Source: a virus. From it: a stretch of 20,725 nt of DNA. Within the stretch, counting starts at the first letter, position 1. Each line of letters begins with the position of its first letter. This document shows positions 2,988-19,141 of the stretch, in pieces. Both the position numbers and the translations under genes were made by a program. Under the pieces are notes generated by a model. It saw only the letters and a program-made list of their open reading frames with translations. It was not told the DNA's origin and did no database searches. The DNA is taken from the UHGV virus genome UHGV-1517735; one strand, given 5' to 3'.

Positions 2988-3869
2988 TTACATAGATGTT
3001 TCGTTTAATTCTTCCCGACGAACGCTGTAAACGTCGGTGGCTTTTGCCAGCAGTTCGTCATCATCTGAAAGTTTTTGTGCAATGTATTTGTAAGCCTTAT
3101 CCAGTTCGGAGACGGTGCTGTAATTCATCGCTGCGCTGGTAAAGGCCATCAGCATTTCTTCTGGATCACGGCTATCCGCTTTACGCGTTTGCTCATCATG
3201 CTTTTTCACTGGTTTAGCGTTGATCAGACTGTTCATTCCCGCAGCAGTAGTCGTTTGCGGAGTAATGTCTCGCTCAACGCGCGGTGCCGTTTCCTGTAAT
3301 TCGTCAGGGGTGTAAACACCGAGAAGCACATCAGGAGCGTGCAGGCGAGCCCATCGTTTCGTGCAAAGATAGGCAAGCTGCTGGCGCGGATCCTGTTCCC
3401 ACAATGGAGAGTTACGCACTCCGGCTTGCGCCATACTGATGGTAAGCTCACGGGGTTCTGCTTCTCCTTTAAGAACTGCTGACACAGTTACCGTCAGATT
3501 CGGTGATTTATCTGTTTTGCCGTTAACATTCGACCAGTCACCGCTCCAGCGATAATTCAGGCGTGTCGCTAGCAGGCTGGAAGAGGATACGACCGCGTTT
3601 ACCAACTGTGCTTCGTAGCCTAACGTTCCGTTTACCACATGCGTTTTCTGCGCCACGGCGAAAGGGTTCATTCCCCACTGTGCCGCCTGCATGGTCACCG
3701 CCAGACAATCGGCAGGTTTGCCTTCAAGATGTTTCGGTACAGTCGCTTTGCTTTGTGACATCAACTCCGCGAAACGCACCAGTTGATTCATGCCCTCCGG
3801 GCTGAAGATTGCCGCAGCAGTACCTACAGTTGCGCCTGGTTGTGATGTGATTGCGATATCATTGCTCAT
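2988..3869 (-). CDS. recT: RecT-family single-strand annealing recombinase
   Basis: 293-aa ORF; RecT-like core; ERDITP segment resembles phage annealing proteins; 4-nt overlap (ATGA) with the upstream exonuclease gene. Confidence 0.8.
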   Translation of the reverse strand: MSNDIAITSQPGATVGTAAAIFSPEGMNQLVRFAELMSQSKATVPKHLEGKPADCLAVTMQAAQWGMNPFAVAQKTHVVNGTLGYEAQLVNAVVSSSSLLATRLNYRWSGDWSNVNGKTDKSPNLTVTVSAVLKGEAEPRELTISMAQAGVRNSPLWEQDPRQQLAYLCTKRWARLHAPDVLLGVYTPDELQETAPRVERDITPQTTTAAGMNSLINAKPVKKHDEQTRKADSRDPEEMLMAFTSAAMNYSTVSELDKAYKYIAQKLSDDDELLAKATDVYSVRREELNETSM

Positions 3870-4687
3870 ACGTACATATCCTGTTTACGTGCCCAGTCAG
3901 GGCGTTTAATAATTTCCACGCCGCCCCATTCATCGTTGATGCGGCATTCGTGATAGGTATTCAGATCCCGGCGGAACAGAGCGTGCCCGGCATCGACATC
4001 CGGCGCATCCAGCTCGAACACGCGTACCGGATACCGACCACAATCAATGCTTTCGCTCACGGCAAGAAAGAAAAAACCATGCGACTGACCAGTAACCCTC
4101 ATCGCTCCTTCGCGGTACATTGCGTCCTGCACGTGGTAGCGGAATTCCTCGATGTGGCGTGCAAAACGATCCATATCTGCAACCTTTTTCACGTCGACGA
4201 TCACGTTGTGCTCGTTCAGCCATTTGTCTGGACGAATGCGGCACAACTCACCAGTCTCTTCATCATTCCAGTACATTGATGCTTCGCAGTAACCAGGTGC
4301 TTCCAGCATCCAGCGTGCCGCCGGGTGAGCCATTGCGCTATCACGCATCAGCTCCAGTTTCCGCCACTGCTCGGCATCAAGTACCGTAATCCCCATATCC
4401 GCTACATCACGAAGAAATGCTTCTTCGTCAGCTTTACCTTGTTTCGTCCGACGATCGAACTTCGGTGAAACAATGAAGCGTTTGTCGAATTCTCCAGGCT
4501 CCAGAAGCAGACAGTGCAATGCGGTTCCCATATCCAGTGCAGACTTTTTCTCTTCGTCTTCTGGTGCTGCCTGAACCCATTTAAGAAGCGCCGGATTCTT
4601 GGCAACCATGTCCAGTTGCGACTTACTCACGCCGTCACCGGCGTGGTAGTCTTCGTTGCTGATGTCGAAATAAATTCCCGGTTTCAT
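3866..4687 (-). CDS. PD-(D/E)XK exonuclease, RecE / exodeoxyribonuclease VIII-like partner of RecT
   Basis: 273-aa ORF; RIRPDKW...IVDVKKV matches the PD-(D/E)XK D..(D/E)xK arrangement; N-terminus GIYFDISNEDYH typical of the family; directly upstream of recT. Confidence 0.75.
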   Translation of the reverse strand: MKPGIYFDISNEDYHAGDGVSKSQLDMVAKNPALLKWVQAAPEDEEKKSALDMGTALHCLLLEPGEFDKRFIVSPKFDRRTKQGKADEEAFLRDVADMGITVLDAEQWRKLELMRDSAMAHPAARWMLEAPGYCEASMYWNDEETGELCRIRPDKWLNEHNVIVDVKKVADMDRFARHIEEFRYHVQDAMYREGAMRVTGQSHGFFFLAVSESIDCGRYPVRVFELDAPDVDAGHALFRRDLNTYHECRINDEWGGVEIIKRPDWARKQDMYV

Positions 4688-5291: not shown

Positions 5292-5876
5292 TTATTGTTT
5301 GTTTTTTTCGTTCTGGTTGATGACAAATTCAATGTAACTTTCGATCTTTGCTTTCTCAGTTTCGGGTAACAATGCGTAGCGCGAGCGGTCATAGTTGATG
5401 GTCGCAGGGTCGTGCGGGTGAATCAGTAATTCATAGCCGTGACGCCCGAATGCGGATGCAACATTCTCCAGGGTGGAAATGGAAACGCTGACCTCATTGT
5501 TTAACAGGCGGCTGATTGTCACCTGGGCGACGCCGGATGCGCGGTGAAGTTTTCCCTGTGTTGAAAGGTCGCGGCTTTCGCTCATCCAGCGTTCCAGGTT
5601 GTGAGCCGCCAGCTGACCTATATCGCTCGGGCCGACAGGCTGAAAACCTTCCTGAGAAAGCGAGCGATCGATATCAAGCCAGTTACGTGGTTTATTGGCG
5701 GCAGCTTCAATTTTTCGCGCAACCTGGTCGCCGATAACCTTCTTGCCAAGAGCCCAGCGGTTTACCAGATTTGCCTGAGTTCCAAGTTTTTCTGCCATCC
5801 GCGTCTGAACACCATTGAATTCACGGTCGATCAAGTCGTTGAGATTTTGCCTGCGGACGTCCTGGATACTTTTCAT
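5292..5876 (-). CDS. CI-like prophage repressor with two HTH domains and no LexA-like peptidase domain
   Basis: 194-aa ORF divergent from the Cro-like gene; N-terminal HTH (QTRMAEKLGTQANLVNRWALGKK) and a second HTH-like segment (SGVAQVTISRLLNNEVSVSISTLENVASAFG); no S24 peptidase signature. Confidence 0.8.
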   Translation of the reverse strand: MKSIQDVRRQNLNDLIDREFNGVQTRMAEKLGTQANLVNRWALGKKVIGDQVARKIEAAANKPRNWLDIDRSLSQEGFQPVGPSDIGQLAAHNLERWMSESRDLSTQGKLHRASGVAQVTISRLLNNEVSVSISTLENVASAFGRHGYELLIHPHDPATINYDRSRYALLPETEKAKIESYIEFVINQNEKNKQ

Positions 5877-6409: not shown

Positions 6410-6622
6410 TTGAAGATAGTAACCAGAATGGAGGCCGCAAAAGCCGGGTTAAATCGCTATTTCACAGGAAAGCGGTGCCGTCACGGCCATCTCTCTGAAA
6501 GGTATGTTCTGAACGGAACATGTGTTGAATGTGCAATGAATAGCGCCAACCGCCATCGTAATGAATTTGCTTGTGCACTAAAGAGTGCAAGAGGGGAAAC
6601 CTATGGCAAGCAGCTGGATTAA
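6410..6622 (+). CDS. Hypothetical Cys/His-rich small protein (cII position); start uncertain (TTG 6410 or ATG 6428)
   Basis: 70-aa ORF; CRHGH...CVEC...C pattern; AAGGGG upstream of the TTG; overlaps the replication gene start; no similarity to lambda CII noticed. Confidence 0.45.
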   Translation: MKIVTRMEAAKAGLNRYFTGKRCRHGHLSERYVLNGTCVECAMNSANRHRNEFACALKSARGETYGKQLD

Positions 6623-7427
6623 GGTTGAAGTTATCACTCCTGATAAACCTGAAATTTTTCAGATAGCAGAAATTCTGGGTATTGATCCAGATGCTGTTCT
6701 TGGAAAGCTGGTTCGTATATGGGCATGGGCTGACCAGCAAACAATAGACGGTAACGCTGGTAGCGTTACAAAAGGAGTACTTGATAGACTCGCTTTTATT
6801 ACAGGATTTGCTGACGCCCTCATTAGCGTCGGATGGCTTGCTTATCATGACGGCAAACTAATTCTTCCAAACTTTGAGCGACATAATGGAGAATCATCGA
6901 AAAAACGTGCACTTACGAATAGAAGAGTGGCAGAGCATCGAAAACGAGTAACGCAAAAAGTAACGCCAACAGCGTTACAAAAGGAGTTACCAGAGGAAGA
7001 GGAAGATATATATAAAACCCCACACATAGCGCACGTGCGCGAGGGTGCTCCGACCAGTGAAGCGAACAGTACGCCGTTGCAGGTGGCAGAACCTGAATTT
7101 CTGGATGGCCTGAGTGAACCCATCGGGAAATTTCCGATGACAGATGGCTGGCTACCGTCGCCAGATTTTCGGCGGCGTGCTGCGCTGTGGGGAACGGCCC
7201 TGCCGGAACCGGAATTTACACCTGCTGAACTTGCTGCATTCCGGGATTACTGGATGGCTGAGGGCAAAGTGTTCACGCAGGTTCAGTGGGAACAAAAATT
7301 CGCCAGGCACGTAAATCATATCAGGGGAAAATCAAAAAATGCCGGGAAAAGCGATGAGCTTGACTGGAATAACACTGACTGGATAGAAGGGGTGTGGGAT
7401 GAAATCAACTCCAGAACTTCTCAATGA
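6603..7427 (+). CDS. Replication initiation / replisome organiser protein with C-terminal DnaT-like domain
   Basis: ATG at 6603 with RBS GAGGGG; C-terminal GKFPMTDGWLPSPDFRRRAALWGTALPEPEFTPAELAAFRDYWMAEGKVFTQVQWEQKFARH closely parallels the E. coli DnaT C-terminus; iteron-like repeats inside the gene. Confidence 0.8.
   Translation: MASSWIKVEVITPDKPEIFQIAEILGIDPDAVLGKLVRIWAWADQQTIDGNAGSVTKGVLDRLAFITGFADALISVGWLAYHDGKLILPNFERHNGESSKKRALTNRRVAEHRKRVTQKVTPTALQKELPEEEEDIYKTPHIAHVREGAPTSEANSTPLQVAEPEFLDGLSEPIGKFPMTDGWLPSPDFRRRAALWGTALPEPEFTPAELAAFRDYWMAEGKVFTQVQWEQKFARHVNHIRGKSKNAGKSDELDWNNTDWIEGVWDEINSRTSQ
6748..7040. repeat. Putative replication origin: duplicated iteron-like element inside the initiator gene
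   Basis: GTAACGC-N5-GCGTTAC-AAAAGGAGT at 6751-6780 and 6960-6990; extra GTAACGC at 6948-6954; AT-rich GATATATATAAAA and 12-bp palindrome GCGCACGTGCGC (7029-7040) follow. Confidence 0.45.
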
Positions 7428-8175
7428 GTACGATCGCTTACGTGAGCATGGTGTTGCTGTGCATGAAGAGCGGCGTGACAGCAATGGCAAAAAGGAGCAG
7501 GTTGCTAGAATTTTCAATGAACTATTTGTCCAGTTACAGGCTGCATTTCCTGCAAGCGTTTCGACCATAAGGGAGCAGAACAAACTTAATGAATTCCGTA
7601 AGCAATGGATGCTTGCGTTTCTGGAGAATGGGATCACTACAATGGAACAGGTTAACGCTGGTATGCGCCACGCCCGCGCCAGTGAATCTCCGTTCTGGCC
7701 GTCGCCAGGGCAATTCATCAAGTGGTGCAAAGACAGCAAGATGGTTCTTGGCGTCACCATTGACGATGTGATGGCGGAGTTTCACCGGTACAGCAAGGAA
7801 AAAAGTTTATATCCTGGTGGTCCCGAAAGATTCCCGTGGCGGCATCCGGTTATGTACTGGGTCGTATGTGATACCCGTCGTGCAATGTATCAGCGCCAGC
7901 TTAGCGAGAGTGAGGTTGAGAAACACGCGCGCAGGCTGCTCGATGATTGGGCGAAAAAGGTGGCTTCCGGACAGCAGATACCCGATCCGGTGATCAGCAT
8001 ACAGGCAAAGCCAGAGCCCATGAGTACACCTCCGGACACAGGGAGAGACGTTTACCATCCACCAGGGCGAAGTTTCGGGTGCATGCCTAACGCCGCCACC
8101 CTTGGGGGAATAACACCGGCGCAGTGGCTGATGGAGGAATACAGGCGGGGAAAGGCGGCAGGATTTATCAAGTAA
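7399..8175 (+). CDS. Lambda P-like replication protein (helicase loader)
   Basis: 258-aa ORF; AFPASVSTIREQNKLNEFRKQWMLAFLENGITTMEQVNAGMRHARASESPFWPSPGQFIKWCK closely matches the conserved core of lambda P as recalled. Confidence 0.88.
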   Translation: MKSTPELLNEYDRLREHGVAVHEERRDSNGKKEQVARIFNELFVQLQAAFPASVSTIREQNKLNEFRKQWMLAFLENGITTMEQVNAGMRHARASESPFWPSPGQFIKWCKDSKMVLGVTIDDVMAEFHRYSKEKSLYPGGPERFPWRHPVMYWVVCDTRRAMYQRQLSESEVEKHARRLLDDWAKKVASGQQIPDPVISIQAKPEPMSTPPDTGRDVYHPPGRSFGCMPNAATLGGITPAQWLMEEYRRGKAAGFIK

Positions 8176-8180
8176 TACCA

Positions 8181-8200
8181 GCGCGATAGCGCATTTTTTT
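8181..8200 (+). terminator. Weak terminator-like hairpin with T7 tract after the P-like gene
   Basis: GCGC GATA GCGC followed by ATTTTTTT. Confidence 0.35.
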
Positions 8201-8212
8201 ACGCCTCGATAA

Positions 8213-8289
8213 TTACCTGTTAGGTAACAAAATATTATAAACTCTATTGATTTCATGTCTTATGTGGTTTTTAATTACCTCAGAGGTAA
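8213..8289 (+). promoter_or_regulatory. Operator-flanked promoter for the downstream operon
   Basis: TTACC-TGTTA-GGTAA (8213-8227) and TTACC-TCAGA-GGTAA (8275-8289); -35 TTGATT (8247-8252), 17-bp spacer, -10 TTTAAT (8270-8275); same layout as the PL-like promoter. Confidence 0.55.
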
Positions 8290-8292
8290 ATC

Positions 8293-8637
8293 ATGAGAAA
8301 ACAGATACAGGCTCTTGGTCGACTCAAAACAGGCCAGATGAACAAAACTGAATCTGCGTATTGCCAGCACCTTGAGCTGCGTAAACGTGCAGGGGAAATC
8401 GCCTGGTATCGATTCGAGGGTATCAAGCTGCGGTTAGCTGACAACACGTTCTATACGCCAGATTTCGCTGTGATGCTCGCCACCGGAGAGATGGAACTGC
8501 ACGAAGTGAAAGGTTTCTGGACCGACGACGCCAGGGTGAAAACCAAAGTCGCCGCAGATCAGTATCCGTTCCGAATCATCGGGGTAACGGTTAAACCAAA
8601 GAAAGCAGGTGGTGGCTGGAACATCGAAGAGTTCTGA
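8293..8637 (+). CDS. DUF1064-like phage protein (putative PD-(D/E)XK-fold nuclease/resolvase)
   Basis: 114-aa ORF; YTPDFAV...ELHEVKG...KTKVAADQYP pattern as recalled for DUF1064; RBS GAGGT. Confidence 0.7.
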   Translation: MRKQIQALGRLKTGQMNKTESAYCQHLELRKRAGEIAWYRFEGIKLRLADNTFYTPDFAVMLATGEMELHEVKGFWTDDARVKTKVAADQYPFRIIGVTVKPKKAGGGWNIEEF

Positions 8638-8698
8638 ATCGACGATCTTTTTAGTTATCAATGTAATCAATAAGTTATGTGGATAAGCGAGGGTAAAG

Positions 8699-9262
8699 AT
8701 GGAAAGTAATATCAAAGGGTTAGTTGCCGCCGGGCATGAGATGGCTTCGGAACTGAAAGCAGAATGTGGTGCCGTTGATATGCGCAGTGTGGCAAAGCTG
8801 ATCAGCGATTTGGCAACGCAACTGGAAGTGCAACTGGTGCGTGCTAATGCGCTGGCCGAAGACCACCAGAGAGCGACTGAGTCAATTAAGCAGGCTGATT
8901 CGGCTGTTAAGTTGGCGCACGAGAAGTTTTCGGTGCTGGCGGCGGAGAATGCGGGGCTGAAGTCTGGCGCAATGGACGAAATCAAGGTTATCAACCGTGG
9001 AGGGCAGGCATATTGCGTAAAAGATGGAGTGCAAGTTAATCCCATGTATGCAAGAGGGTGGAATGACTATCGCGCAAAGTCTCTGCAATCAGACACCCCG
9101 GCCACCGACGCATTCCTTGCTGAAATTGAACGCAAAGCAATCCGCAAGTTCATTAACAGCATTGAACACATCCTGCGTGACAAGTTGTCACCGTATGACA
9201 CCGAAGAGATGCTTGAAGCTATGCGTATTTTTCTGGAAGAACAGGGAGGTGAGCAAAAATGA
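8699..9262 (+). CDS. Hypothetical protein (187 aa), first gene of accessory operon
   Basis: RBS GCGAGGG before ATG 8699; coiled-coil-like N-terminal half; no recognisable domain. Confidence 0.7.
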   Translation: MESNIKGLVAAGHEMASELKAECGAVDMRSVAKLISDLATQLEVQLVRANALAEDHQRATESIKQADSAVKLAHEKFSVLAAENAGLKSGAMDEIKVINRGGQAYCVKDGVQVNPMYARGWNDYRAKSLQSDTPATDAFLAEIERKAIRKFINSIEHILRDKLSPYDTEEMLEAMRIFLEEQGGEQK

Positions 9263-9564
9263 CGATCACAAAACAACGGGTAGAAGAAATCATATCCCGC
9301 ATTGAAATGTATGGGCATGGCGCAGGGTATACCGCCGAAGAGGTTTATGACCTGGCTGTACTGGCGCTGAATTTATCAAATATCGCAAACCTGAAGCGAT
9401 ACGAGCTTGATATGGGTGGTTGTGACTCGTGCGGTCAGGATTGTGGCGCTGACATGACTGAAGATTCTGATGGCGATTATGTCCTGTTTGATGACGTAGT
9501 TAAGTTGTTTGAGTTTGATACATTCGAAAGCCCAGCAAAGGAGGCAACCAGTGAGCGAAATTAA
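9259..9564 (+). CDS. Hypothetical acidic protein (101 aa) with CDSCGQDC motif
   Basis: ATG overlaps upstream stop (ATGA); no recognisable domain. Confidence 0.6.
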   Translation: MTITKQRVEEIISRIEMYGHGAGYTAEEVYDLAVLALNLSNIANLKRYELDMGGCDSCGQDCGADMTEDSDGDYVLFDDVVKLFEFDTFESPAKEATSERN

Positions 9565-10249
9565 TTACCAGGCACTGCGTGAGGCGGCGGAACGTGCAAT
9601 TCCGGCAATGGAACGCCTGTTAATGTTGCTAGTTGATGATGCTCTGATAAGTGAACAGGAACTTAAAGATTACGGTGTGGATATTGATGCGCTCAACGCC
9701 TTCAAATTTCTGGCCGGACCAGAAACCGTGCTGGCGCTTCTGGATGAACGGGAAAGAAACCAGCAATACATCAAACGCCGCGACCAGGAGAACGAGGAGA
9801 TTGCGCTAACGGTAGGGAAACTGCGTGTTGAGCTTGAAGCAGCAAAATCAAAACTCAACGAGCAGCGTGAATATTACGAGGGAGTAATCGCGGATGGAAG
9901 TAAGCGTATTGCTGAACTGGAGAAAAGCGAAGAGCAACTCATCAATGAGCGTGACCATGCTGAGTCTGCTTTAGATGATATGTACTTTGCAGCAACCGGT
10001 AACAGGCCGGAGTGGAGCAACTGGTTCGGCTTTTCAGATGCTGTCGATGCCGTGGTTGACAGAATTGCTGATTTAGAAGCTAAACAGTCATCGCCAGTAG
10101 TGCCGGAAGGACTGGTTAAAGCAGTGCGCTTCTATGAGCAGGTTAAGCGTGAAAATCCGCCAGTCGAAACCGGAGCATGGAAAGACGCTGTTGACTGGGT
10201 GCTCAAAGAGGCCTGCCAGGTTGTAAACATTGGTACCAAAGGAGATTGA
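9551..10249 (+). CDS. Hypothetical coiled-coil protein (232 aa)
   Basis: GTG at 9551 preceded by AAGGAGG; long heptad-like central region; C-terminal PVVPE module shared with the next gene. Confidence 0.6.
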   Translation: MSEINYQALREAAERAIPAMERLLMLLVDDALISEQELKDYGVDIDALNAFKFLAGPETVLALLDERERNQQYIKRRDQENEEIALTVGKLRVELEAAKSKLNEQREYYEGVIADGSKRIAELEKSEEQLINERDHAESALDDMYFAATGNRPEWSNWFGFSDAVDAVVDRIADLEAKQSSPVVPEGLVKAVRFYEQVKRENPPVETGAWKDAVDWVLKEACQVVNIGTKGD

Positions 10250-10250
10250 T

Positions 10251-10631
10251 ATGAGCACTTTTACCGACAAAGAACTGATTAAAGAAATCAAAGAGCGCAT
10301 AGGCAGTCTGGACGTGCGAGACGATATTGAGCGCCGTGCTTATGAAATTGCTCTGGCATCACTGGAAGCAGAGCCGGTGGCGTGGCTTCATTCAGACAAT
10401 GGCTTAGGTATTCCGGCAATAACGAGGAGTAAAAACATTGCTGACAGTTGGTTATCAAAGGGTTGGTATGTTCAGCCGCTATATATAGCCAAGCCAGTGC
10501 CAGTAGTACCGGAAGAAAAACCAATGCCGAACCCTCTTAGCATGTACGCGGTTGATGCTGTTGCCGCTATTGCAGAGGTGAGAGGCTGGAACGCCTGCCG
10601 TGCCGTCATGCTTCAGGGAGATAAATCATGA
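10251..10631 (+). CDS. Hypothetical protein (126 aa), shares C-terminal PVVPE module with upstream gene
   Basis: ATG 10251 preceded by AAGGAG; AKPVPVVPEE parallels AKQSSPVVPEG in the upstream protein. Confidence 0.65.
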   Translation: MSTFTDKELIKEIKERIGSLDVRDDIERRAYEIALASLEAEPVAWLHSDNGLGIPAITRSKNIADSWLSKGWYVQPLYIAKPVPVVPEEKPMPNPLSMYAVDAVAAIAEVRGWNACRAVMLQGDKS

Positions 10632-11245
10632 TTAATCGTACCAAGCTGGAGCACATCCTCGAATATGCCAGACAGCAGAGGCGCTTTGGTCAGCATTGCA
10701 AAATTCCGCCAGGAGATATGGTTGAAATCGTGGAAATGGCCATGCGTAAGGCTGGCAACCCTCATGTAACCCCGGCTCGCCTGCCTGGTGGTTTCACCAT
10801 TGAGGATGCGAAGGCGTTACATGAAGACCTGGTACGCAGCCACATAAGCCAGGCTTTAAGTGGCGAAAATATGAAAAAGAACGATCGCGATGCTGATTTG
10901 CGCTGGATTCATGGCGTAATAGTTCAGGCAGCGTGGTTTGTAAAAGCATCACTGGAGCAAAATGCGCTATCGGGCAACTCTCCGGTAACTCCGGATGGTT
11001 GGGTTATAGTGCCGAAGAAACTAACCGCTGAGAACGGCGCTAAGGGTGTGCTATCCGGTGAATTTTCAGAAACTACGTTTATAAGCTGCCCGGAATGCTT
11101 TGGCGATGATGATTGCGATACCTGTGACGGGAGCGGACGAATTGAAATTAAAGTACCAGTCACGTGGACGACCATAAAATCCATCTGGGATAAAGGTATT
11201 GCGCATTTTGCAGCAAAACCGCCGCAGGAGGTTAACCGTGGCTAA
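10628..11245 (+). CDS. Hypothetical protein with DnaJ-type zinc-finger motif (205 aa)
   Basis: CPECFGDDDCDTCDGSG fits the CxxCxG...CxxCxGxG pattern of DnaJ cysteine-rich domains; start overlaps upstream stop. Confidence 0.7.
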   Translation: MINRTKLEHILEYARQQRRFGQHCKIPPGDMVEIVEMAMRKAGNPHVTPARLPGGFTIEDAKALHEDLVRSHISQALSGENMKKNDRDADLRWIHGVIVQAAWFVKASLEQNALSGNSPVTPDGWVIVPKKLTAENGAKGVLSGEFSETTFISCPECFGDDDCDTCDGSGRIEIKVPVTWTTIKSIWDKGIAHFAAKPPQEVNRG

Positions 11246-11519
11246 CCTGCAACTTGCCGTCAAAGGTGAATACTTCGATGCCATGATTCGCGGGGAGAAA
11301 ACGGAAGAGTATCGCCTGTGTAATGACTACTGGAAAAAGCGCCTCGTTAACCGTAAGCATGACCGCCTGATTATCACAAAGGGATATCCGAAGCGCGACG
11401 ATTCCAGCCGCAGAATAGACGTCCCGTATGAAGGGTATGAAATCAAGACAATCACACATCCGCACTTCGGCGATAAACCGGTAAAGGTGTTCGCGATAAA
11501 GGTAAATATTGATGGCTAA
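11238..11519 (+). CDS. ASCH-domain-like protein (93 aa)
   Basis: GTG at 11238 preceded by AGGAGG; LQLAVKGEYFDAMIRGEKTEEYR resembles the ASCH N-terminal strand-turn motif. Confidence 0.6.
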   Translation: MANLQLAVKGEYFDAMIRGEKTEEYRLCNDYWKKRLVNRKHDRLIITKGYPKRDDSSRRIDVPYEGYEIKTITHPHFGDKPVKVFAIKVNIDG

Positions 11520-11850
11520 ATCAGCAGCAGAGCGCAAAGCCGCTCAGAGAGCCAGACAAGCTGCATCTGGTGTGCGTAAACTGGAGATTGTGCTTGATGC
11601 TCAGGAAATTGAAATGCTGGAGCGTAACTGTGCCACGCGTCGCCCCGGGCGTGCGCCTTACGAATTTGGTGAGTATATAGCGTTACTGATCCGCCAGGAT
11701 GATGCACGCGTGCGCGGGCGTATAAAATCGATCAGCAGAAAACGTTGCGGTAAGTGCGGAGAGAGAGTTCCAGTTAATTCATGCCCGTGTAATGGTGACT
11801 CGCAATGCTGGGTGACTAAAGGCTGGCATGAAACGAAATTAATAGTGTGA
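11512..11850 (+). CDS. Cys-rich zinc-finger protein (112 aa), candidate late-gene regulator
   Basis: Basic N-terminal segment; C-terminal CGKCG...CPCNGDSQC; last gene before the terminator and operators upstream of terminase. Confidence 0.6.
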   Translation: MAKSAAERKAAQRARQAASGVRKLEIVLDAQEIEMLERNCATRRPGRAPYEFGEYIALLIRQDDARVRGRIKSISRKRCGKCGERVPVNSCPCNGDSQCWVTKGWHETKLIV

Positions 11851-11858
11851 CATGTCAC
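11847..11858. repeat. Perfect 12-bp palindrome GTGACATGTCAC (copy 1)
   Basis: Overlaps the stop of the 11512-11850 gene; second copy at 14111-14122. Confidence 0.5.
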
Positions 11859-11897
11859 GAGTAGATTATGCATGATGAATTTGATGGTTTTGAATAC

Positions 11898-11925
11898 TGC
11901 CGCCAACTATGGCGGCTTTATTTTG
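11898..11925 (+). terminator. Rho-independent terminator upstream of terminase genes (tR-prime-like position)
   Basis: GCCGCC / GGCGGC stem with AACTAT loop, followed by TTTATTTTG. Confidence 0.65.
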
Positions 11926-11934
11926 CATGGTACT

Positions 11935-11967
11935 ATTACCACAACGGTAACTATTACCACGGTGGTT
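11935..11967. promoter_or_regulatory. Two operator-like palindromes immediately upstream of the terminase small subunit
   Basis: TTACC-ACAAC-GGTAA (11935-11949) and TTACC-ACGGT-GGTTA (11953-11967), the second abutting the start codon. Confidence 0.5.
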
Positions 11968-12564
11968 ATGATGCCTGCTGAACCTAAAACCTATAAACGC
12001 AAATCAACGCAATTTAAGCCACTAACAGCAATGCAGGAGGCTTATTGCCAGTCATACATCAAAACGCCTGAAAACCAGACTCAGGCAGCGATTAATGCAG
12101 GATTCTCCCCAAATACAGCGGCAGTTAAAGCCAGTGTCATGATGCGCGATGAACGCATTCAAAAACGGATTGCCGAGTTGATGGAGGAGCGCAACAAACG
12201 AATGCGCGTCAGTGCTGATTACGTTCTCATGCGCCTGGTGGAGATCGACCAGATGGACGTGATCGACATCCTCAACGACGATGGGAGCCTTAAGCCAATC
12301 CGCGAGTGGCCGAAAATCTGGCGCACTACGCTTAGTGGCTTTGATCTGTCATCGACCATCATGAACATGAACGAGGATTCGATAGAGACAATCCTCAAAA
12401 AAATTAAATGGCCTGACAAGGTGAAGAACCTCGAACTGATTGGTAAGCACGTCGACGTCAACGCATTCAAAGAACGCCTGGATGTTAATGTGAATGTGAC
12501 AATTGCTGATCGCATAGCAGCAGCCAGGAAGCGACTCAAAGAACGTCAGGATGGCAATCAGTGA
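11968..12564 (+). CDS. Terminase small subunit (start uncertain; upstream in-frame ATGs rejected because they span the terminator)
   Basis: HTH-like segment TQAAINAGFSPNTAAVKASVMMRDERIQKRI typical of small terminase subunits; directly upstream of and overlapping the large subunit. Confidence 0.7.
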   Translation: MMPAEPKTYKRKSTQFKPLTAMQEAYCQSYIKTPENQTQAAINAGFSPNTAAVKASVMMRDERIQKRIAELMEERNKRMRVSADYVLMRLVEIDQMDVIDILNDDGSLKPIREWPKIWRTTLSGFDLSSTIMNMNEDSIETILKKIKWPDKVKNLELIGKHVDVNAFKERLDVNVNVTIADRIAAARKRLKERQDGNQ

Positions 12565-14036
12565 CAGATGCAGCGTTATCTCCTGAAGAGCAGTTGATCG
12601 AGGATATTGCAGGGTTCACTCACGATCCGCTTGGCTATGCCCTCTATGCGTTCCCGTGGGGGGAAGAGGGGACTGAACTGGCACATGCTACCGGCCCACG
12701 TCAGTGGCAGGCCGATGCGTTCCGAGAGATACGTGATCACCTGCAGAATCCAGAGACGCGCTATCAGCCGCTTATGCTGGCACGCGCTTCTGGTCACGGT
12801 ATTGGTAAATCCGCATTCATCTCAATGCTGATCAACTGGGGCATGTCCACTTGCGAGGATTGTAAGGTCGTGGTGACCGCCAACACCGACAACCAGCTAC
12901 GAACGAAGACCTGGCCGGAAATTATCAAGTGGTCGAACCTTGCTATCACGAAAGACTGGTTTACCTGTACTGCTACCGCGATGTACAGCAATGACCCAGG
13001 GCACGACAAGCGGTGGCGGGCTGACGCAATACCCTGGTCTGAGCACAACACTGAGGCATTCGCCGGACTACACAACGAGCGCAAACGCATCATCGTGGTA
13101 TTCGATGAAGCGTCGAACATTGCGGATTTGGTGTGGGAAGTTGCCGAGGGTGCGCTAACGGACGAAGACACTGAGATTATCTGGGTGGCATTCGGAAACC
13201 CGACGCGTAATACCGGACGTTTCCGCGAATGTTTCCGCAAATATAAACACCGCTGGAAAACTGCGCAGATTGACAGCCGGACGGTGGAAGGCACTAACAA
13301 ACAGCAGTTGCAGAAATGGGTTGATGACTACGGGGAAGACAGCGACTTCGTTAAAATCCGTGTGCGCGGCATATTCCCGGATGCATCTGAATTGCAGTTT
13401 ATCCCTACCGGACTTACTGACGAGGCAATGAAACGGGTGGTCACCGCTGCGCAGGTTGCACATGCTCCGGTGATAATCGGCGTTGACCCGGCATACTCAG
13501 GCGTTGATGACGCGGTGATATACCTGCGGCAGGGGCTGCACAGTAAGGTGCTATGGACTGGTAACAAGACCACCGACGATCTGATTATGGCGAAGCGTAT
13601 CGCTGACTTTGAAGACCAGTACCAGGCTGACGCGGTGTTCATCGACTTCGGTTACGGTACCGGTCTGAAGTCAATCGGTGACGGTTGGGGGCGTACATGG
13701 CAACTTGTTCCGTTCGGTGGCGCGTCTACTGATCCGCAGATGCTTAACAAGCGTGGGGAGATGTTCAACTCATGCAAGACATGGCTGAGGCTGGGCGGCA
13801 TGCTGGATGACCAGGAAACAGCGGACGACCTGTCGGCGGCAGAGTACAAAGTTCGCGTGGACGGTAAAATCGTTATCGAACCGAAGGAAGATATCAAGGA
13901 GCGGCTTGGGCGTTCGCCGGGTAAAGGCGATGCGCTACTGCTGACGTTTGCGTTCCCTGTGTCTAAGCGTCTGCGAATTCCCGGGCAGCAGAACCAGCAA
14001 GGCAAGGCCATCACAGATTACGATCCCTATGCTTAA
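12561..14036 (+). CDS. Terminase large subunit
   Basis: 491-aa ORF, GTG start overlapping upstream stop; Walker A ARASGHGIGKSAF, Walker B-like IIVVFDEASNI, C-terminal nuclease-like IGVDPAYSG..D region. Confidence 0.92.
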   Translation: MTDAALSPEEQLIEDIAGFTHDPLGYALYAFPWGEEGTELAHATGPRQWQADAFREIRDHLQNPETRYQPLMLARASGHGIGKSAFISMLINWGMSTCEDCKVVVTANTDNQLRTKTWPEIIKWSNLAITKDWFTCTATAMYSNDPGHDKRWRADAIPWSEHNTEAFAGLHNERKRIIVVFDEASNIADLVWEVAEGALTDEDTEIIWVAFGNPTRNTGRFRECFRKYKHRWKTAQIDSRTVEGTNKQQLQKWVDDYGEDSDFVKIRVRGIFPDASELQFIPTGLTDEAMKRVVTAAQVAHAPVIIGVDPAYSGVDDAVIYLRQGLHSKVLWTGNKTTDDLIMAKRIADFEDQYQADAVFIDFGYGTGLKSIGDGWGRTWQLVPFGGASTDPQMLNKRGEMFNSCKTWLRLGGMLDDQETADDLSAAEYKVRVDGKIVIEPKEDIKERLGRSPGKGDALLLTFAFPVSKRLRIPGQQNQQGKAITDYDPYA

Positions 14037-14109: not shown

Positions 14110-14123
14110 TGTGACATGTCACA
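14110..14123. repeat. 14-bp palindrome TGTGACATGTCACA (copy 2 of GTGACATGTCAC)
   Basis: Identical 12-bp core to 11847-11858; lies between the cargo ORF stop and its terminator. Confidence 0.5.
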
Positions 14124-14744: not shown

Positions 14745-14821
14745 TGGCGTGGCATGCAGGATTCGAACCTGCGACCAACCGCTTAGAAGGCGGTTGCTCT
14801 GTCCAACTGAGCTAATGCCAC
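14745..14821 (-). tRNA. tRNA-Arg, anticodon UCU (argU-like, phage-borne)
   Basis: 77-nt cloverleaf read on the minus strand: acceptor GTGGCAT/ATGCCAC, D-stem GCTC/GAGC, anticodon stem ACCGC/GCGGT with loop CUUCUAA, T-stem GCAGG/CCTGC with TTCGAAT loop, encoded CCA. Confidence 0.92.
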
Positions 14822-17149: not shown

Positions 17150-17442
17150 CAGATTACGAAGATGATCAACTGAAAGAAGAAAGCGCCCGTAAGCAACGTG
17201 ACATGGCACAGCGTGAAATTGATGACATTCGCTTTGTCATGAGCAGTGAACAGGGGCGTCGCGTTGTCTGGTCGGTGCTGGAGAAAGGCCGTGTGTTTTC
17301 CGCTATCTCACCGATGGACGCTATGGCAATGGCATTTAATGAGGGGCAACGCAATCTGGCGCTGGAACTGTTTCAGCGCGTTATGGCGCATTGCCCTGAA
17401 CAGTATTTGAAGATGGCCAAAGAGGCCAGTGAACAGGAGTGA
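17146..17442 (+). CDS. Hypothetical head-module protein (98 aa)
   Basis: ATG overlaps portal stop (ATGA); between portal and scaffold. Confidence 0.6.
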   Translation: MTDYEDDQLKEESARKQRDMAQREIDDIRFVMSSEQGRRVVWSVLEKGRVFSAISPMDAMAMAFNEGQRNLALELFQRVMAHCPEQYLKMAKEASEQE

Positions 17443-18154: not shown

Positions 18155-19141
18155 ATGGCTGTTAAAGGCTTAACTGCGCTAACGCTGGCTGACTGGGGTA
18201 AGCGCGTCGATCCAAACGGGAAAGTCGATAAGATTATCGAGCTTCTCGGTCAAACTAACCCGATCCTTCAGGATATGCCTTTTGTCGAAGGGAACCTTCC
18301 TACCGGACACCGAACCACCATTCGTTCTGGTTTACCTTCTGCTACCTGGCGTTTGTTGAACTATGGCGTACAACCAAGCAAATCAACCACAGTGCAGGTC
18401 ACCGATCCCGTTGGCATGTTGGAAACCTATGCTGAAGTCGATAAGTCACTGGCTGATCTGAACGGCAATACCGCCGAATTCCGCCTGTCTGAAGACCGAG
18501 CATTTATTGAAGCGATGAATCAGCAGATGGCGCAGACGCTGTTTTATGGTGATTCCAGCGTTAACCCTCAGCAGTTTATGGGACTGTCCTCCCGCTATTC
18601 CAGCCTGTCTGCGGGTAATGCTCAGAACATCATTGATGCTGGTGGCACGGGTACAGATAACACCTCAATCTGGTTAGTAGTGTGGGGCGAAAACACCGTG
18701 CATGGCATCTTCCCGAAAGGGCAGAAGGCTGGCATTCAGATGGAAGATAAAGGCCAGGTGACACTGGAAGATGCTAATGGCGGCAAGTACGAAGGCTATC
18801 GCACCCATTACAAATGGGACAACGGACTTGCTCTGCGTGACTGGCGTTATGTTGTTCGCATTGCAAACATCGATGTCAGCAATCTTTCAGAACCTTCCTC
18901 TGCCGCAAATATTGCGAAGTTGATGGTTAAAGCACTGCATCGCATTCCAAACCGTGGCATGGGCCGCCCGGTGTTCTACATGAACCGCACTGTAGGCCAG
19001 GCTCTTGATCTGCAGTCTCTGGAGAAAACATCTCTGGCTATCAGCGTAAAAGAGACTGAAGGCGAGTGGTGGACTTCATTCCGTGGTGTACCAATCCGTG
19101 AAACTGATGCGCTTCTGGAAACAGAAGCCCGCGTGGTGTAA
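18155..19141 (+). CDS. Major capsid protein
   Basis: 328-aa ORF with RBS GAGAGGA; follows the scaffold gene; followed by an intercistronic hairpin; call based on position and size, no specific motif recognised. Confidence 0.7.
   Translation: MAVKGLTALTLADWGKRVDPNGKVDKIIELLGQTNPILQDMPFVEGNLPTGHRTTIRSGLPSATWRLLNYGVQPSKSTTVQVTDPVGMLETYAEVDKSLADLNGNTAEFRLSEDRAFIEAMNQQMAQTLFYGDSSVNPQQFMGLSSRYSSLSAGNAQNIIDAGGTGTDNTSIWLVVWGENTVHGIFPKGQKAGIQMEDKGQVTLEDANGGKYEGYRTHYKWDNGLALRDWRYVVRIANIDVSNLSEPSSAANIAKLMVKALHRIPNRGMGRPVFYMNRTVGQALDLQSLEKTSLAISVKETEGEWWTSFRGVPIRETDALLETEARVV

Follow-up and report, generated by a model that had tools for sequence, protein, structure and literature searches.

The stretch of DNA analyzed here, referred to below as the window, is one strand of 20,725 nucleotides from the virus genome UHGV-1517735. 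It comes from a phage of E. coli, a temperate podophage assigned to the genus Uetakevirus (epsilon15/phiV10-like). We examined a run of seven small genes, designated p1 to p7, in the slot between the replication genes (DnaT-like O, lambda-P-like and DUF1064) and the packaging genes. A preliminary description of this interval had placed it in that slot and had proposed that the seven open reading frames (ORFs) form one accessory operon, a plausible home for an undescribed system. The position of the slot is as described, and all seven ORFs are found on the + strand exactly at the coordinates claimed for them: p1 at 8699-9262, p2 at 9259-9564, p3 at 9551-10249, p4 at 10251-10631, p5 at 10628-11245, p6 at 11238-11519 and p7 at 11512-11850. 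The interval is nevertheless an ordinary mosaic accessory region, a hypervariable slot of reshuffled Ea-type modules followed by two conserved small genes. This particular combination of seven genes is new; its kind is well known and is already annotated as such in related genomes.

The genes are tightly coupled, as the preliminary description held, with each ORF overlapping or abutting the next. The p1/p2 and p4/p5 junctions are 4-nt ATGA overlaps, p2 and p3 overlap by 14 nt, and p3 and p4 are separated by a single nucleotide. At the p5/p6 (11238-11245) and p6/p7 (11512-11519) junctions there are 8-nt overlaps, GTGGCTAA and ATGGCTAA respectively, with the common motif (A/G)TGGCTAA. The gene that precedes p7 in relatives, be it an ASCH, NinX, DUF2591 or 101-106-residue protein gene, likewise overlaps p7 by 8 nt. 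Since the same overlap is seen whichever gene stands before p7, it suggests a conserved cassette joint. GTG serves as the start codon of p3 and p6, and AGGAGG-type Shine-Dalgarno sequences are found upstream of p2, p3, p4, p5 and p6. The same arrangement occurs on two metagenome contigs, one of 40,302 bp (comparable to complete Uetakevirus genomes) and the other a 24-kb scaffold from a different sample; independent gene calls on both gave identical products of 187, 101, 232, 126, 205, 93 and 112 amino acids. These two recurrences look like the same phage lineage. The RefSeq and GenBank annotations of homologues agree with the same start codons. Ratios of nonsynonymous to synonymous polymorphism (pN/pS), computed against homologous segments, indicate purifying selection on six of the seven genes (p1 0.44, p2 0.48, p3 0.26, p4 0.35, p6 0.23, p7 0.12); the value for p5 is uninformative, as it comes from a single, barely diverged segment.

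A simple consensus scan of the + strand between 8261 and 11847 found no promoter-like or terminator-like sites. Just 3' to the lambda-P-like gene, at 8181-8200 (+), the sequence reads as a G+C hairpin (GCGC-gata-GCGC) followed by a run of seven T residues. Its stem of 4 bp is too short for the consensus terminator scan; the equivalent in phiV10 is annotated as a putative rho-independent terminator, and the hairpin probably marks the upstream edge of the accessory transcription unit. The unit is closed by an intrinsic terminator at 11899-11925 (+; GCCGCCA-acta-TGGCGGC followed by TTTATTTT; region z-score -3.3). Because these two elements bound it and none is predicted between 8261 and 11847, the transcription unit is better described as DUF1064 (8293-8637, +) plus the seven genes. 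The closing terminator also bears on the annotation of terS (11872/11968-12564). It sits within the longest terS ORF, whose ATG at 11872 is the start chosen by some gene callers, while ZX5 and TL-2011b annotate a 198-residue terS for which the equivalent start here is the ATG at 11968, downstream of the terminator. As the terminator lies inside the long ORF and the 198-residue version begins after it, the longer annotated starts are probably wrong.

The seven genes do not travel together. When 50,697 phage records and 5,426 complete E. coli genomes were searched with positions 8200-12000, none covered 80% or more of the query (best 49% and 66%, respectively), and partial matches were found in 604 phage records and 4,377 E. 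coli genomes. In ten annotated relatives the slot holds from 6 to 14 annotated coding sequence features, and homology to p1-p5 appears in patches with sharp edges. We also surveyed 62 IMG/VR contigs, each containing both DUF1064 and p7. These carry 61 distinct slot sequences of 1.6-4.2 kb (2.9 kb in the window), and all seven genes are present on none of them. Near-full copies, defined by at least 80% coverage and at least 80% identity, were found for p1 on 5 contigs, for p2 on 4, for p6 on 40, and for p3, p4 and p5 on none. Individual modules occur in other phage types and at other genome positions, and in ZX5 the genes of the same slot, ORF27-31, have been reported to differ from those of other Uetakeviruses (PMC9782041). 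The left flank is constant: the DUF1064 protein is 97-100% identical in nine of the ten annotated relatives, is frameshifted in TL-2011b, and is present in 58 of the 62 loci of the IMG/VR survey. On the right, p7 is 97-100% identical in all ten, and terS is 99.5-100% identical in eight annotated loci and 90% identical in a further one (L005); the phiV10 locus stops short of terS. A single undescribed system, as had been proposed, is thus not what the co-occurrence of these genes reveals, and five of the seven proved to be members or modules of long-known lambdoid Ea families.

The family assignments come largely from PHROGs, which places all seven proteins in phage families; scans of reference proteins tie the families of p1, p3, p4 and p5 to lambdoid 'ea' genes. 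Pfam recognizes only p3 (Ead_Ea22), with a sub-threshold ASCH match for p6. NCBIfam returned nothing meaningful for the seven proteins, and sequence searches of the PDB returned nothing usable for any of them. In agreement with the preliminary description, no replication, lysis or morphogenesis domain was found by the Pfam, PHROG and NCBIfam scans. The matches are to ea proteins, as that description had allowed they might be, and these are not well-characterized housekeeping ones. Its expectation that slots of this kind hold genes for interaction with the host is borne out by p1, a homologue of Oad2, an inhibitor of OLD, and by p3, a member of the Ea22 family, for which a pro-lysogenic effect has been reported (PMC7093339).

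Protein p1 (187 residues, acidic, with an N-terminal coiled coil) is assigned by sequence to the EaE/Oad2 family, PHROG 614. It matches PHROG 492 and PHROG 614 (E 1.9e-34 for the latter), and the same PHROG 614 is matched by HK446 gp27/Oad2 (8e-53) and by P22 EaE (4.6e-55). In BLASTP it aligns with Oad2 over the full length (residues 14-186) at 28% identity (E 4e-13); the alignment with P22 EaE is limited to a 17-residue motif. The LAAENAG(L/M)KS and TPATDAFLAE motifs, like the PHROG families, are common to p1 and Oad2. It differs from Oad2 in its first 50 or so residues, a Uetakevirus-specific constant segment after which the remainder is variable, the left mosaic breakpoint lying at about 8856-8961; its target is probably different as well. 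HK446 gp27 (Oad2) binds to the OLD nuclease of P2, whose activation it blocks, and is described by its authors as a relative of P22 EaE that is sometimes fused to EaD/Ea22; an HK75 homologue 54% identical to Oad2 gives no protection against OLD (bioRxiv 10.64898/2026.07.10.737580). Fusions of a p1-like N-terminus with Ea22 were also found in PHROG 250. By analogy with Oad2, p1 could inhibit some defence protein, a proposal that we regard as doubtful for this particular protein. Of the Ea families, that of p1 is the only one in which a member has been shown to act against defence.

Protein p2 (101 residues, isoelectric point (pI) 4.1) is a small acidic protein of PHROG 3126 (8e-63), with a weak match to PHROG 3323 and an N-terminal leader weakly like those of EaA-type proteins. 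It is present in five of the ten annotated and 4 of the 62 IMG/VR loci, each time with the full-length type of p1. The CxxCxxxC motif that had been pointed out in this acidic protein is indeed there. Its middle Cys (C58), however, is polymorphic (C/F) and is Phe in about half of the homologues, so that p2 probably has no metal site.

Protein p3 (232 residues) has the N-terminus and coiled coil of the Ead/Ea22 family together with a different C-terminal domain (CTD; PHROG 26213). It passes the gathering threshold of Pfam PF13935 (122.6 bits against a cutoff of 27, E 2.3e-35, model positions 1-139). In tblastn comparisons residues 1-127 are 64% identical to lambda Ea22 (E 1.35e-40) and residues 62-178 are 41% identical to P22 EaD, and PHROG 250 is common to all three. 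On this evidence p3 is classed as an Ea22-family member with a non-lambda CTD, and the long coiled coils noted in the preliminary description are consistent with Ea22 architecture. The lambda-type CTD, which has been solved by nuclear magnetic resonance, was not found in p3: the alignment with lambda ends at residue 127, and no PDB sequence match was obtained at E up to 1. Members of the Ea22 family have a common N-terminus and coiled coil joined to unrelated, portable CTDs, one of which is DUF551; lambda Ea22 and the variant from an Stx phage (P27) are tetrameric, and the CTD has been proposed to contact an unknown host protein (PMC10834534). Because CTDs differ among members (PMC10834534), the absence of the lambda CTD does not exclude p3 from the family. 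Protein p3 thus follows the published plan, seen in lambda Ea22 and P22 EaD, of a scaffold that stays constant and a CTD that can be swapped, but its own CTD (residues ~144-232) is unrelated to the solved lambda domain. Its gene also differs in location, lying in a rightward operon after the replication genes rather than in the exo-xis region of the leftward operon, as in lambda. Deletion of ea22 from lambda or Phi24B lowers host survival after infection, and ea22 favours lysogeny (PMC7093339); by analogy, p3 may tentatively be given an influence on the lysis-lysogeny outcome. Residues 113-171 of p3 (9887-10063) match PHROG 4790, annotated as 'host RecBCD nuclease inhibitor', at E 3e-8. This PHROG is neither that of lambda Gam (PHROG 259) nor that of P22 Abc2 (PHROG 656), and with no similarity to Gam a role for p3 as a RecBCD inhibitor was set aside; the segment is probably a shared mosaic module and a weak lead.

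Proteins p4 (126 residues) and p5 (205 residues) are both assigned by sequence comparison to the EaA type as module proteins that have neither DUF550 nor DUF551. Protein p4 matches PHROG 5117 at 4e-40 as well as PHROGs 660, 60 and 3323, all common to P22 EaA, and its residues 33-84 match P22 EaA itself at E 7.5e-4 (tblastn); in related loci it was found as fragments only. Protein p5 consists of an N-module, a middle module, a GNSPVTPDGW linker and a C-terminal module with the DnaJ-like motif CxxCxGxxxCxxCxGxG. It matches P22 EaA at E 9.4e-5 (tblastn), in a different part from p4, and PHROGs 60, 660, 5117, 924, 12449 and 24004 hold p4, p5 and P22 EaA. The two proteins are thus built from the same leaders, middle modules and GNSPVTPDGW linker as P22 EaA and the DUF550/DUF551 proteins. 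They differ in that the modules are spread here over two genes, in having a DnaJ-like double CxxCxG zinc-knuckle as the head, and in lacking the DUF550 pyrophosphohydrolase domain. No Pfam match to DUF550 or DUF551 was obtained for p4 or p5 at E up to 0.1, and in p5 the zinc-knuckle module sits at the DUF551 position. A DnaJ-type CxxCxGxG zinc finger had been reported in this region. The motif is present in p5, in two repeats (CPECFGDDDCDTCDGSG), but the Pfam DnaJ model (PF00684) was not matched at E up to 0.1 and a J domain is lacking; where p5 homologues bear the NCBI name 'molecular chaperone DnaJ', that name is motif-based.

The way in which these modules are joined is apparent from the 3,472 partial homologues of p5, in which p5 modules occur as fusions with DUF550, DUF551 or Ea22 parts. 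Within the linker, residues G116, P119, T121, P122, D123 and W125 are invariant. The part preceding the linker varies between a leader of the p5 type, a DUF550 domain and an Ea22 scaffold, and may be all but missing; what follows is the zinc-knuckle module (VIVPKKL...CPECFGDDDCDTCDGSGRIEIKV...) in some proteins and a DUF551 module in others. Proteins of both types have PPQEVNRG as their last residues, a stretch that coincides in part with the ribosome-binding site and start of the gene that follows. At the DNA level, the exchange point of the C-terminal modules is a conserved 30-bp joint at 10973-11002 (+), encoding SPVTPDGWVI, which is 89-97% identical in eight of the ten annotated loci amid unrelated neighbouring sequence. 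Another short conserved island, at 10346-10378, encodes the ALASLEAEP end of the p4 leader. Homologous recombination at short conserved joints is the classic explanation for lambdoid mosaicism, and we infer that the modules of this slot are shuffled in the same way. A segment of 596 bp across the p4/p5 boundary, absent from the ten annotated loci, is itself a mosaic, with pieces in HK022, Stx phages, other prophages and plasmids. In the interval 10380-10975, part of the p4/p5 DNA shares 95% identity with a DUF551 gene carried by an E. coli plasmid of 94 kb. Matches to the segment were found at 2,808 places; 450 of these are on plasmids, and the module pool is therefore shared with plasmids or phage-plasmids.

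The two genes that follow the variable part are conserved to different degrees. Protein p6, basic and 93 residues long, is predicted from its structural model to be a minimal ASCH-fold protein, as had been claimed. The AlphaFold2 model has a predicted local distance difference test score (pLDDT) of 89.5 (36 homologues), and its best Foldseek matches in the PDB are all ASCH proteins: 3iuw (probability 1.0), PH0355, PF0470, the Zymomonas protein ZmASCH and YqfB, with template modelling (TM) scores of 0.49-0.59. Residues G19, K21, E24 and R26 are invariant in the 36 homologues and spell GxKxxExR, which we take to be the ASCH family signature. By sequence, p6 falls short of the Pfam ASCH threshold (PF04266; 15.1 bits against a cutoff of 21.2, E 0.039), and none of the 120 p6 homologues listed has a precomputed Pfam match. 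It resembles E. coli YqfB (an N4-acetylcytidine (ac4C) amidohydrolase), Zymomonas ASCH and the ASCH domain of TRIP4 in its beta-barrel fold and the GxKxxExR residues, and differs from them in being a bare domain core that scores below the Pfam sequence threshold. It occurs in eight of the ten annotated relatives, on the 40 IMG/VR contigs counted above (about 64%), and in 41 of 64 loci collected with terL as the anchor. In ZX5 it is replaced by NinX and in TL-2011b by a DUF2591 protein.

Protein p7 (112 residues, pI 9.8) is the product of a near-core gene. In the terL-anchored set, which is unbiased towards p7, the gene lies directly upstream of terS in 62 of the 64 loci (97%). The two others (L142 and L165) have p6 and no full-length p7 before terS, and may be natural deletions or replacements of p7. 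The model of p7 (pLDDT 93, 59 sequences) has a strand-helix-helix at residues ~20-74 behind a basic N-terminal arm, followed by a Cys-rich, zinc-ribbon-like C-terminal tail in which C79 and C82 are invariant and C99 is nearly so. It is accordingly modelled as a ribbon-helix-helix (RHH) protein without a named family: no Pfam family was matched, and the only match in a BFVD fold search was a 46-residue fragment of the p7 family itself, under the automatic name 'ubiquitin-binding zinc finger'. The family is small, with 154 clusters at 50% identity among 1.8 billion representatives, and the 120 closest clusters carrying a source name are all from Enterobacterales.

A perfect 12-bp palindrome, GTGACATGTCAC, overlaps the stop codon of p7 at 11847-11858 and is a candidate operator. 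It is invariant in four unrelated contexts, namely E. coli and Klebsiella loci of the Uetakevirus type and Salmonella and Edwardsiella lambdoid loci, and in these four the sequence 3' to it diverges completely within a few bases. A p7 homologue of 61% identity has a related sequence, CGTGAC-CT-GTCACG, across its stop codon; at a homologue of 45% identity no palindrome was found. A second exact copy, here extended to 14 bp (TGTGACATGTCACA), lies at 14111-14122, just 3' to terL and a bidirectional terminator hairpin. Copies flank terS-terL on both sides in at least 54 of 76 related loci, as well as in a Klebsiella relative. A copy with one mismatch is found at 17198-17209. Because a predicted RHH protein adjoins a conserved palindrome, p7 and the palindrome suggest a candidate operator-regulator pair, in which p7 would most likely bind GTGACATGTCAC at its own stop codon and behind terL. 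In its strand-helix-helix with basic N-terminal arm and its perfect palindrome beside the gene, p7 resembles the RHH regulators Arc, Mnt, CopG and AmrZ. It differs from the classical RHH repressors in its additional Cys-rich tail (CxxC...C...C) and lack of a Pfam family, and in the location of the candidate site, which is at the 3' end of the gene and not in a promoter. In the Edwardsiella (L014, ~6470-6490) and Salmonella (L015, ~6490-6510) lambdoid prophages, an SOS-box-like CTGT-N8-ACAG follows the p7 homologue and precedes a DinI-like or Rem-like gene.

Taken together, the interval is probably a hypervariable accessory segment of the rightward early transcription unit, made up of exchangeable cassettes rather than of the parts of a co-adapted machine. 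DUF1064 and the seven ORFs would be expressed as a single translationally coupled string, bounded by the weak terminator behind the P-like gene and by the strong one that follows p7. Proteins p1-p5 would each have an N-terminal helical or coiled-coil scaffold, short conserved linkers and interchangeable C-terminal heads, and recombination at the linkers (GNSPVTPDGW) and at the gene junctions ((A/G)TGGCTAA and PPQEVNRG*) would yield a different combination in almost every phage. To judge from the two characterized relatives, these five proteins would each act alone, soon after infection or induction, by stoichiometric binding to proteins of the host or of rival elements. On this reading p1 would inhibit an OLD-type or other defence protein and p3 would bias the lysis-lysogeny outcome as an oligomeric scaffold; p6 would be an ASCH-fold (PUA-like) protein binding RNA or nucleotides, and p7 an RHH DNA-binding protein acting at GTGACATGTCAC. 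The extreme turnover of p1-p5 would suit an arms race. The apparent mystery operon would then be a fresh combination of long-known, poorly characterized lambdoid Ea modules, an outcome that is useful for annotation and in itself unsurprising. About 80% of complete E. coli genomes contain pieces of the interval, and the Ea modules therefore constitute a large pool of candidate defence inhibitors. There are two modest leads: p1 is a candidate for anti-defence activity, and p7 and its palindrome travel together across unrelated phage backbones and so offer a concrete candidate protein-site pair.

Several points weigh against this reading. The functional roles proposed for the window's proteins are drawn from relatives. 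Transfer of the Oad2 target to p1 is weak at 28% identity, given that the homologue with 54% identity is inactive on OLD. For p3, the CTD differs from that of lambda Ea22, and the lambda CTD alone is insufficient for the phenotype. Expression as part of an early operon is read from the lack of predicted internal promoters and terminators in the simple consensus scan. Finally, the C-terminal part of p1 and p2 co-occur in all loci seen, so that small linked pairs of genes are possible within the slot.

A more specific version of these ideas, which we consider improbable, has two separate parts. The Ea slot would be a recombination-driven library of scaffold-plus-head binders, with the conserved linkers (GNSPVTPDGW) and junction sequences as dedicated recombination joints; each head would counter a different defence of the host, p1 being directed against an OLD-family (ABC-ATPase/TOPRIM) nuclease other than P2 OLD. 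Separately, p7 and the two palindromes around terS-terL would form a regulator not described before, acting at the early-to-late or packaging boundary of Uetakeviruses, in which no Q is recognizable.

The genes might instead supply nin-like helpers of DNA metabolism, comparable to NinB/Orf, NinG/Rap and NinH, for replication, recombination or packaging. The region has the position of lambda nin, beside the resolvase-like DUF1064 gene, the predicted folds of p6 and p7 are of nucleic acid-binding and DNA-binding types, and the palindrome flanks the terminase genes. As in the nin regions of lambda and P22, tightly packed, non-essential-looking small genes follow replication genes and a terminator and precede the late or packaging genes. 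However, when the seven proteins were compared by tblastn with the lambda and P22 genomes, no nin match was found at E below 0.2; they have no sequence relationship to NinB-NinI, NinX, NinY or NinZ, and p1-p5 belong in Ea families instead. A tie to nin exists in two relatives, through the gene at the p6 position, NinX in ZX5 and DUF2591 in TL-2011b (RefSeq puts NinX-like proteins in DUF2591). The extreme variation in presence and absence would be unexpected for helpers of core processes, and p7 with its palindrome is also found in lambdoid nin regions distant from terminase genes. A helper role for the seven genes is thus unlikely, and we prefer to compare the region with lambda nin and the lambdoid exo-xis/ea regions combined, in that it is dispensable-looking, bounded by terminators and made up of exchangeable small genes.

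It is likewise quite unlikely, to a slightly greater degree, that p7 is the late-gene regulator of Uetakeviruses, a functional analogue of lambda Q. The layout would suit such a role: p7, present in nearly all relatives, is the last gene before a promoter-like site (GTGACA-18-CATGAT, 11847-11876), the terminator at 11899-11925 and then terS, an order resembling P22 gene 23 followed by P-late/t-late, and no Q homologue was seen in the window. Yet the lambdoid prophages of Salmonella and Edwardsiella, which have their own Q and separate lysis/terminase (late) operons, carry p7 homologues of 78-81% identity in their nin regions, and in the phage that has a 45%-identical homologue a Q gene lies upstream. 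The RHH fold of p7 is unrelated to known Q proteins, and the promoter-like site, which agrees at 9 of 12 positions, is of a kind no commoner here than in shuffled sequence. As a Q-type antiterminator in the strict sense (PF06323, PF06530 or PF03589) p7 was rejected, there being no Pfam match, an RHH model and homologues that coexist with Q genes.

Hypervariable prophage regions often hold defence genes, and this slot is variable; the seven genes could then be morons, expressed from the prophage to protect the lysogen by superinfection exclusion or anti-phage defence. This is very unlikely. The PADLOC-DB defence models gave only coiled-coil-type matches, at E of 0.0019 or more for p3 and 0.018 for p5, and neither a membrane protein nor a nuclease or ATPase effector domain was found among the seven by Pfam and NCBIfam. 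The genes have no promoter or terminator of their own, are oriented with the lytic early genes and translationally coupled to them, and have characterized relatives that act for the phage during infection. A paper on mEpimmI (PMC11893012) was considered and set aside, as it concerns an unrelated siphovirus group. Least probable of all, and to our minds scarcely credible, is that the seven genes form one co-functional undescribed system for takeover, anti-defence or exclusion: tight coupling on a single strand, the exact arrangement on two metagenome contigs and the PHROG 250 fusions of a p1-like N-terminus with Ea22 would speak for it, but the two contigs look like one lineage, none of the 62 IMG/VR loci has all seven genes, no record in the phage and E. 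coli collections covers 80% of the interval, p3, p4 and p5 are near-full nowhere in the IMG/VR set, and the modules are seen in other phage types and positions.

The surroundings of the slot are those of a Uetakevirus. The top BLASTN matches for 8200-12000 were PAS61, ZX5, phiV10, TL-2011b, the O157 typing phages 9 and 10, and many E. coli prophages, and the flanks of the best Uetakevirus matches (PAS61, ZX5, phiV10 and TL-2011b) are the same as those of the window. The annotated gene order in relatives is repressor, cro-like gene, DnaT-like O, lambda-P-like gene, DUF1064, a run of small genes, terS and terL. In the window the repressor is at 5292-5876 (-), DnaT-like O at 6585-7427, the lambda-P-like gene at 7399-8175 and terL at 12561-14036. 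The DUF1064 protein, which is PD-(D/E)XK/Holliday-junction-resolvase-like, matches Pfam DUF1064 at 3.7e-07 and PHROG 190 ('Holliday junction resolvase') at 7e-43. A capsid gene of the epsilon15 GP7 type is located at 18155-19141 (match to GP7 at 5.5e-149). An Rfam scan of the window gave a tRNA as its sole match; this tRNA-Arg gene (anticodon TCT), at 14745-14821 (-), lies between the terminase genes and the portal gene and is kept in related prophages. Further to the left, a leftward early operon (1638-2288, 2988-3869 and 3866-4687, all -) encodes an MT-A70-type adenine methyltransferase and a recombination pair consisting of RecT and a DUF3799 (PD-(D/E)XK exonuclease-like) protein, and an integrase with an Arm-binding domain is encoded at 193-1443.

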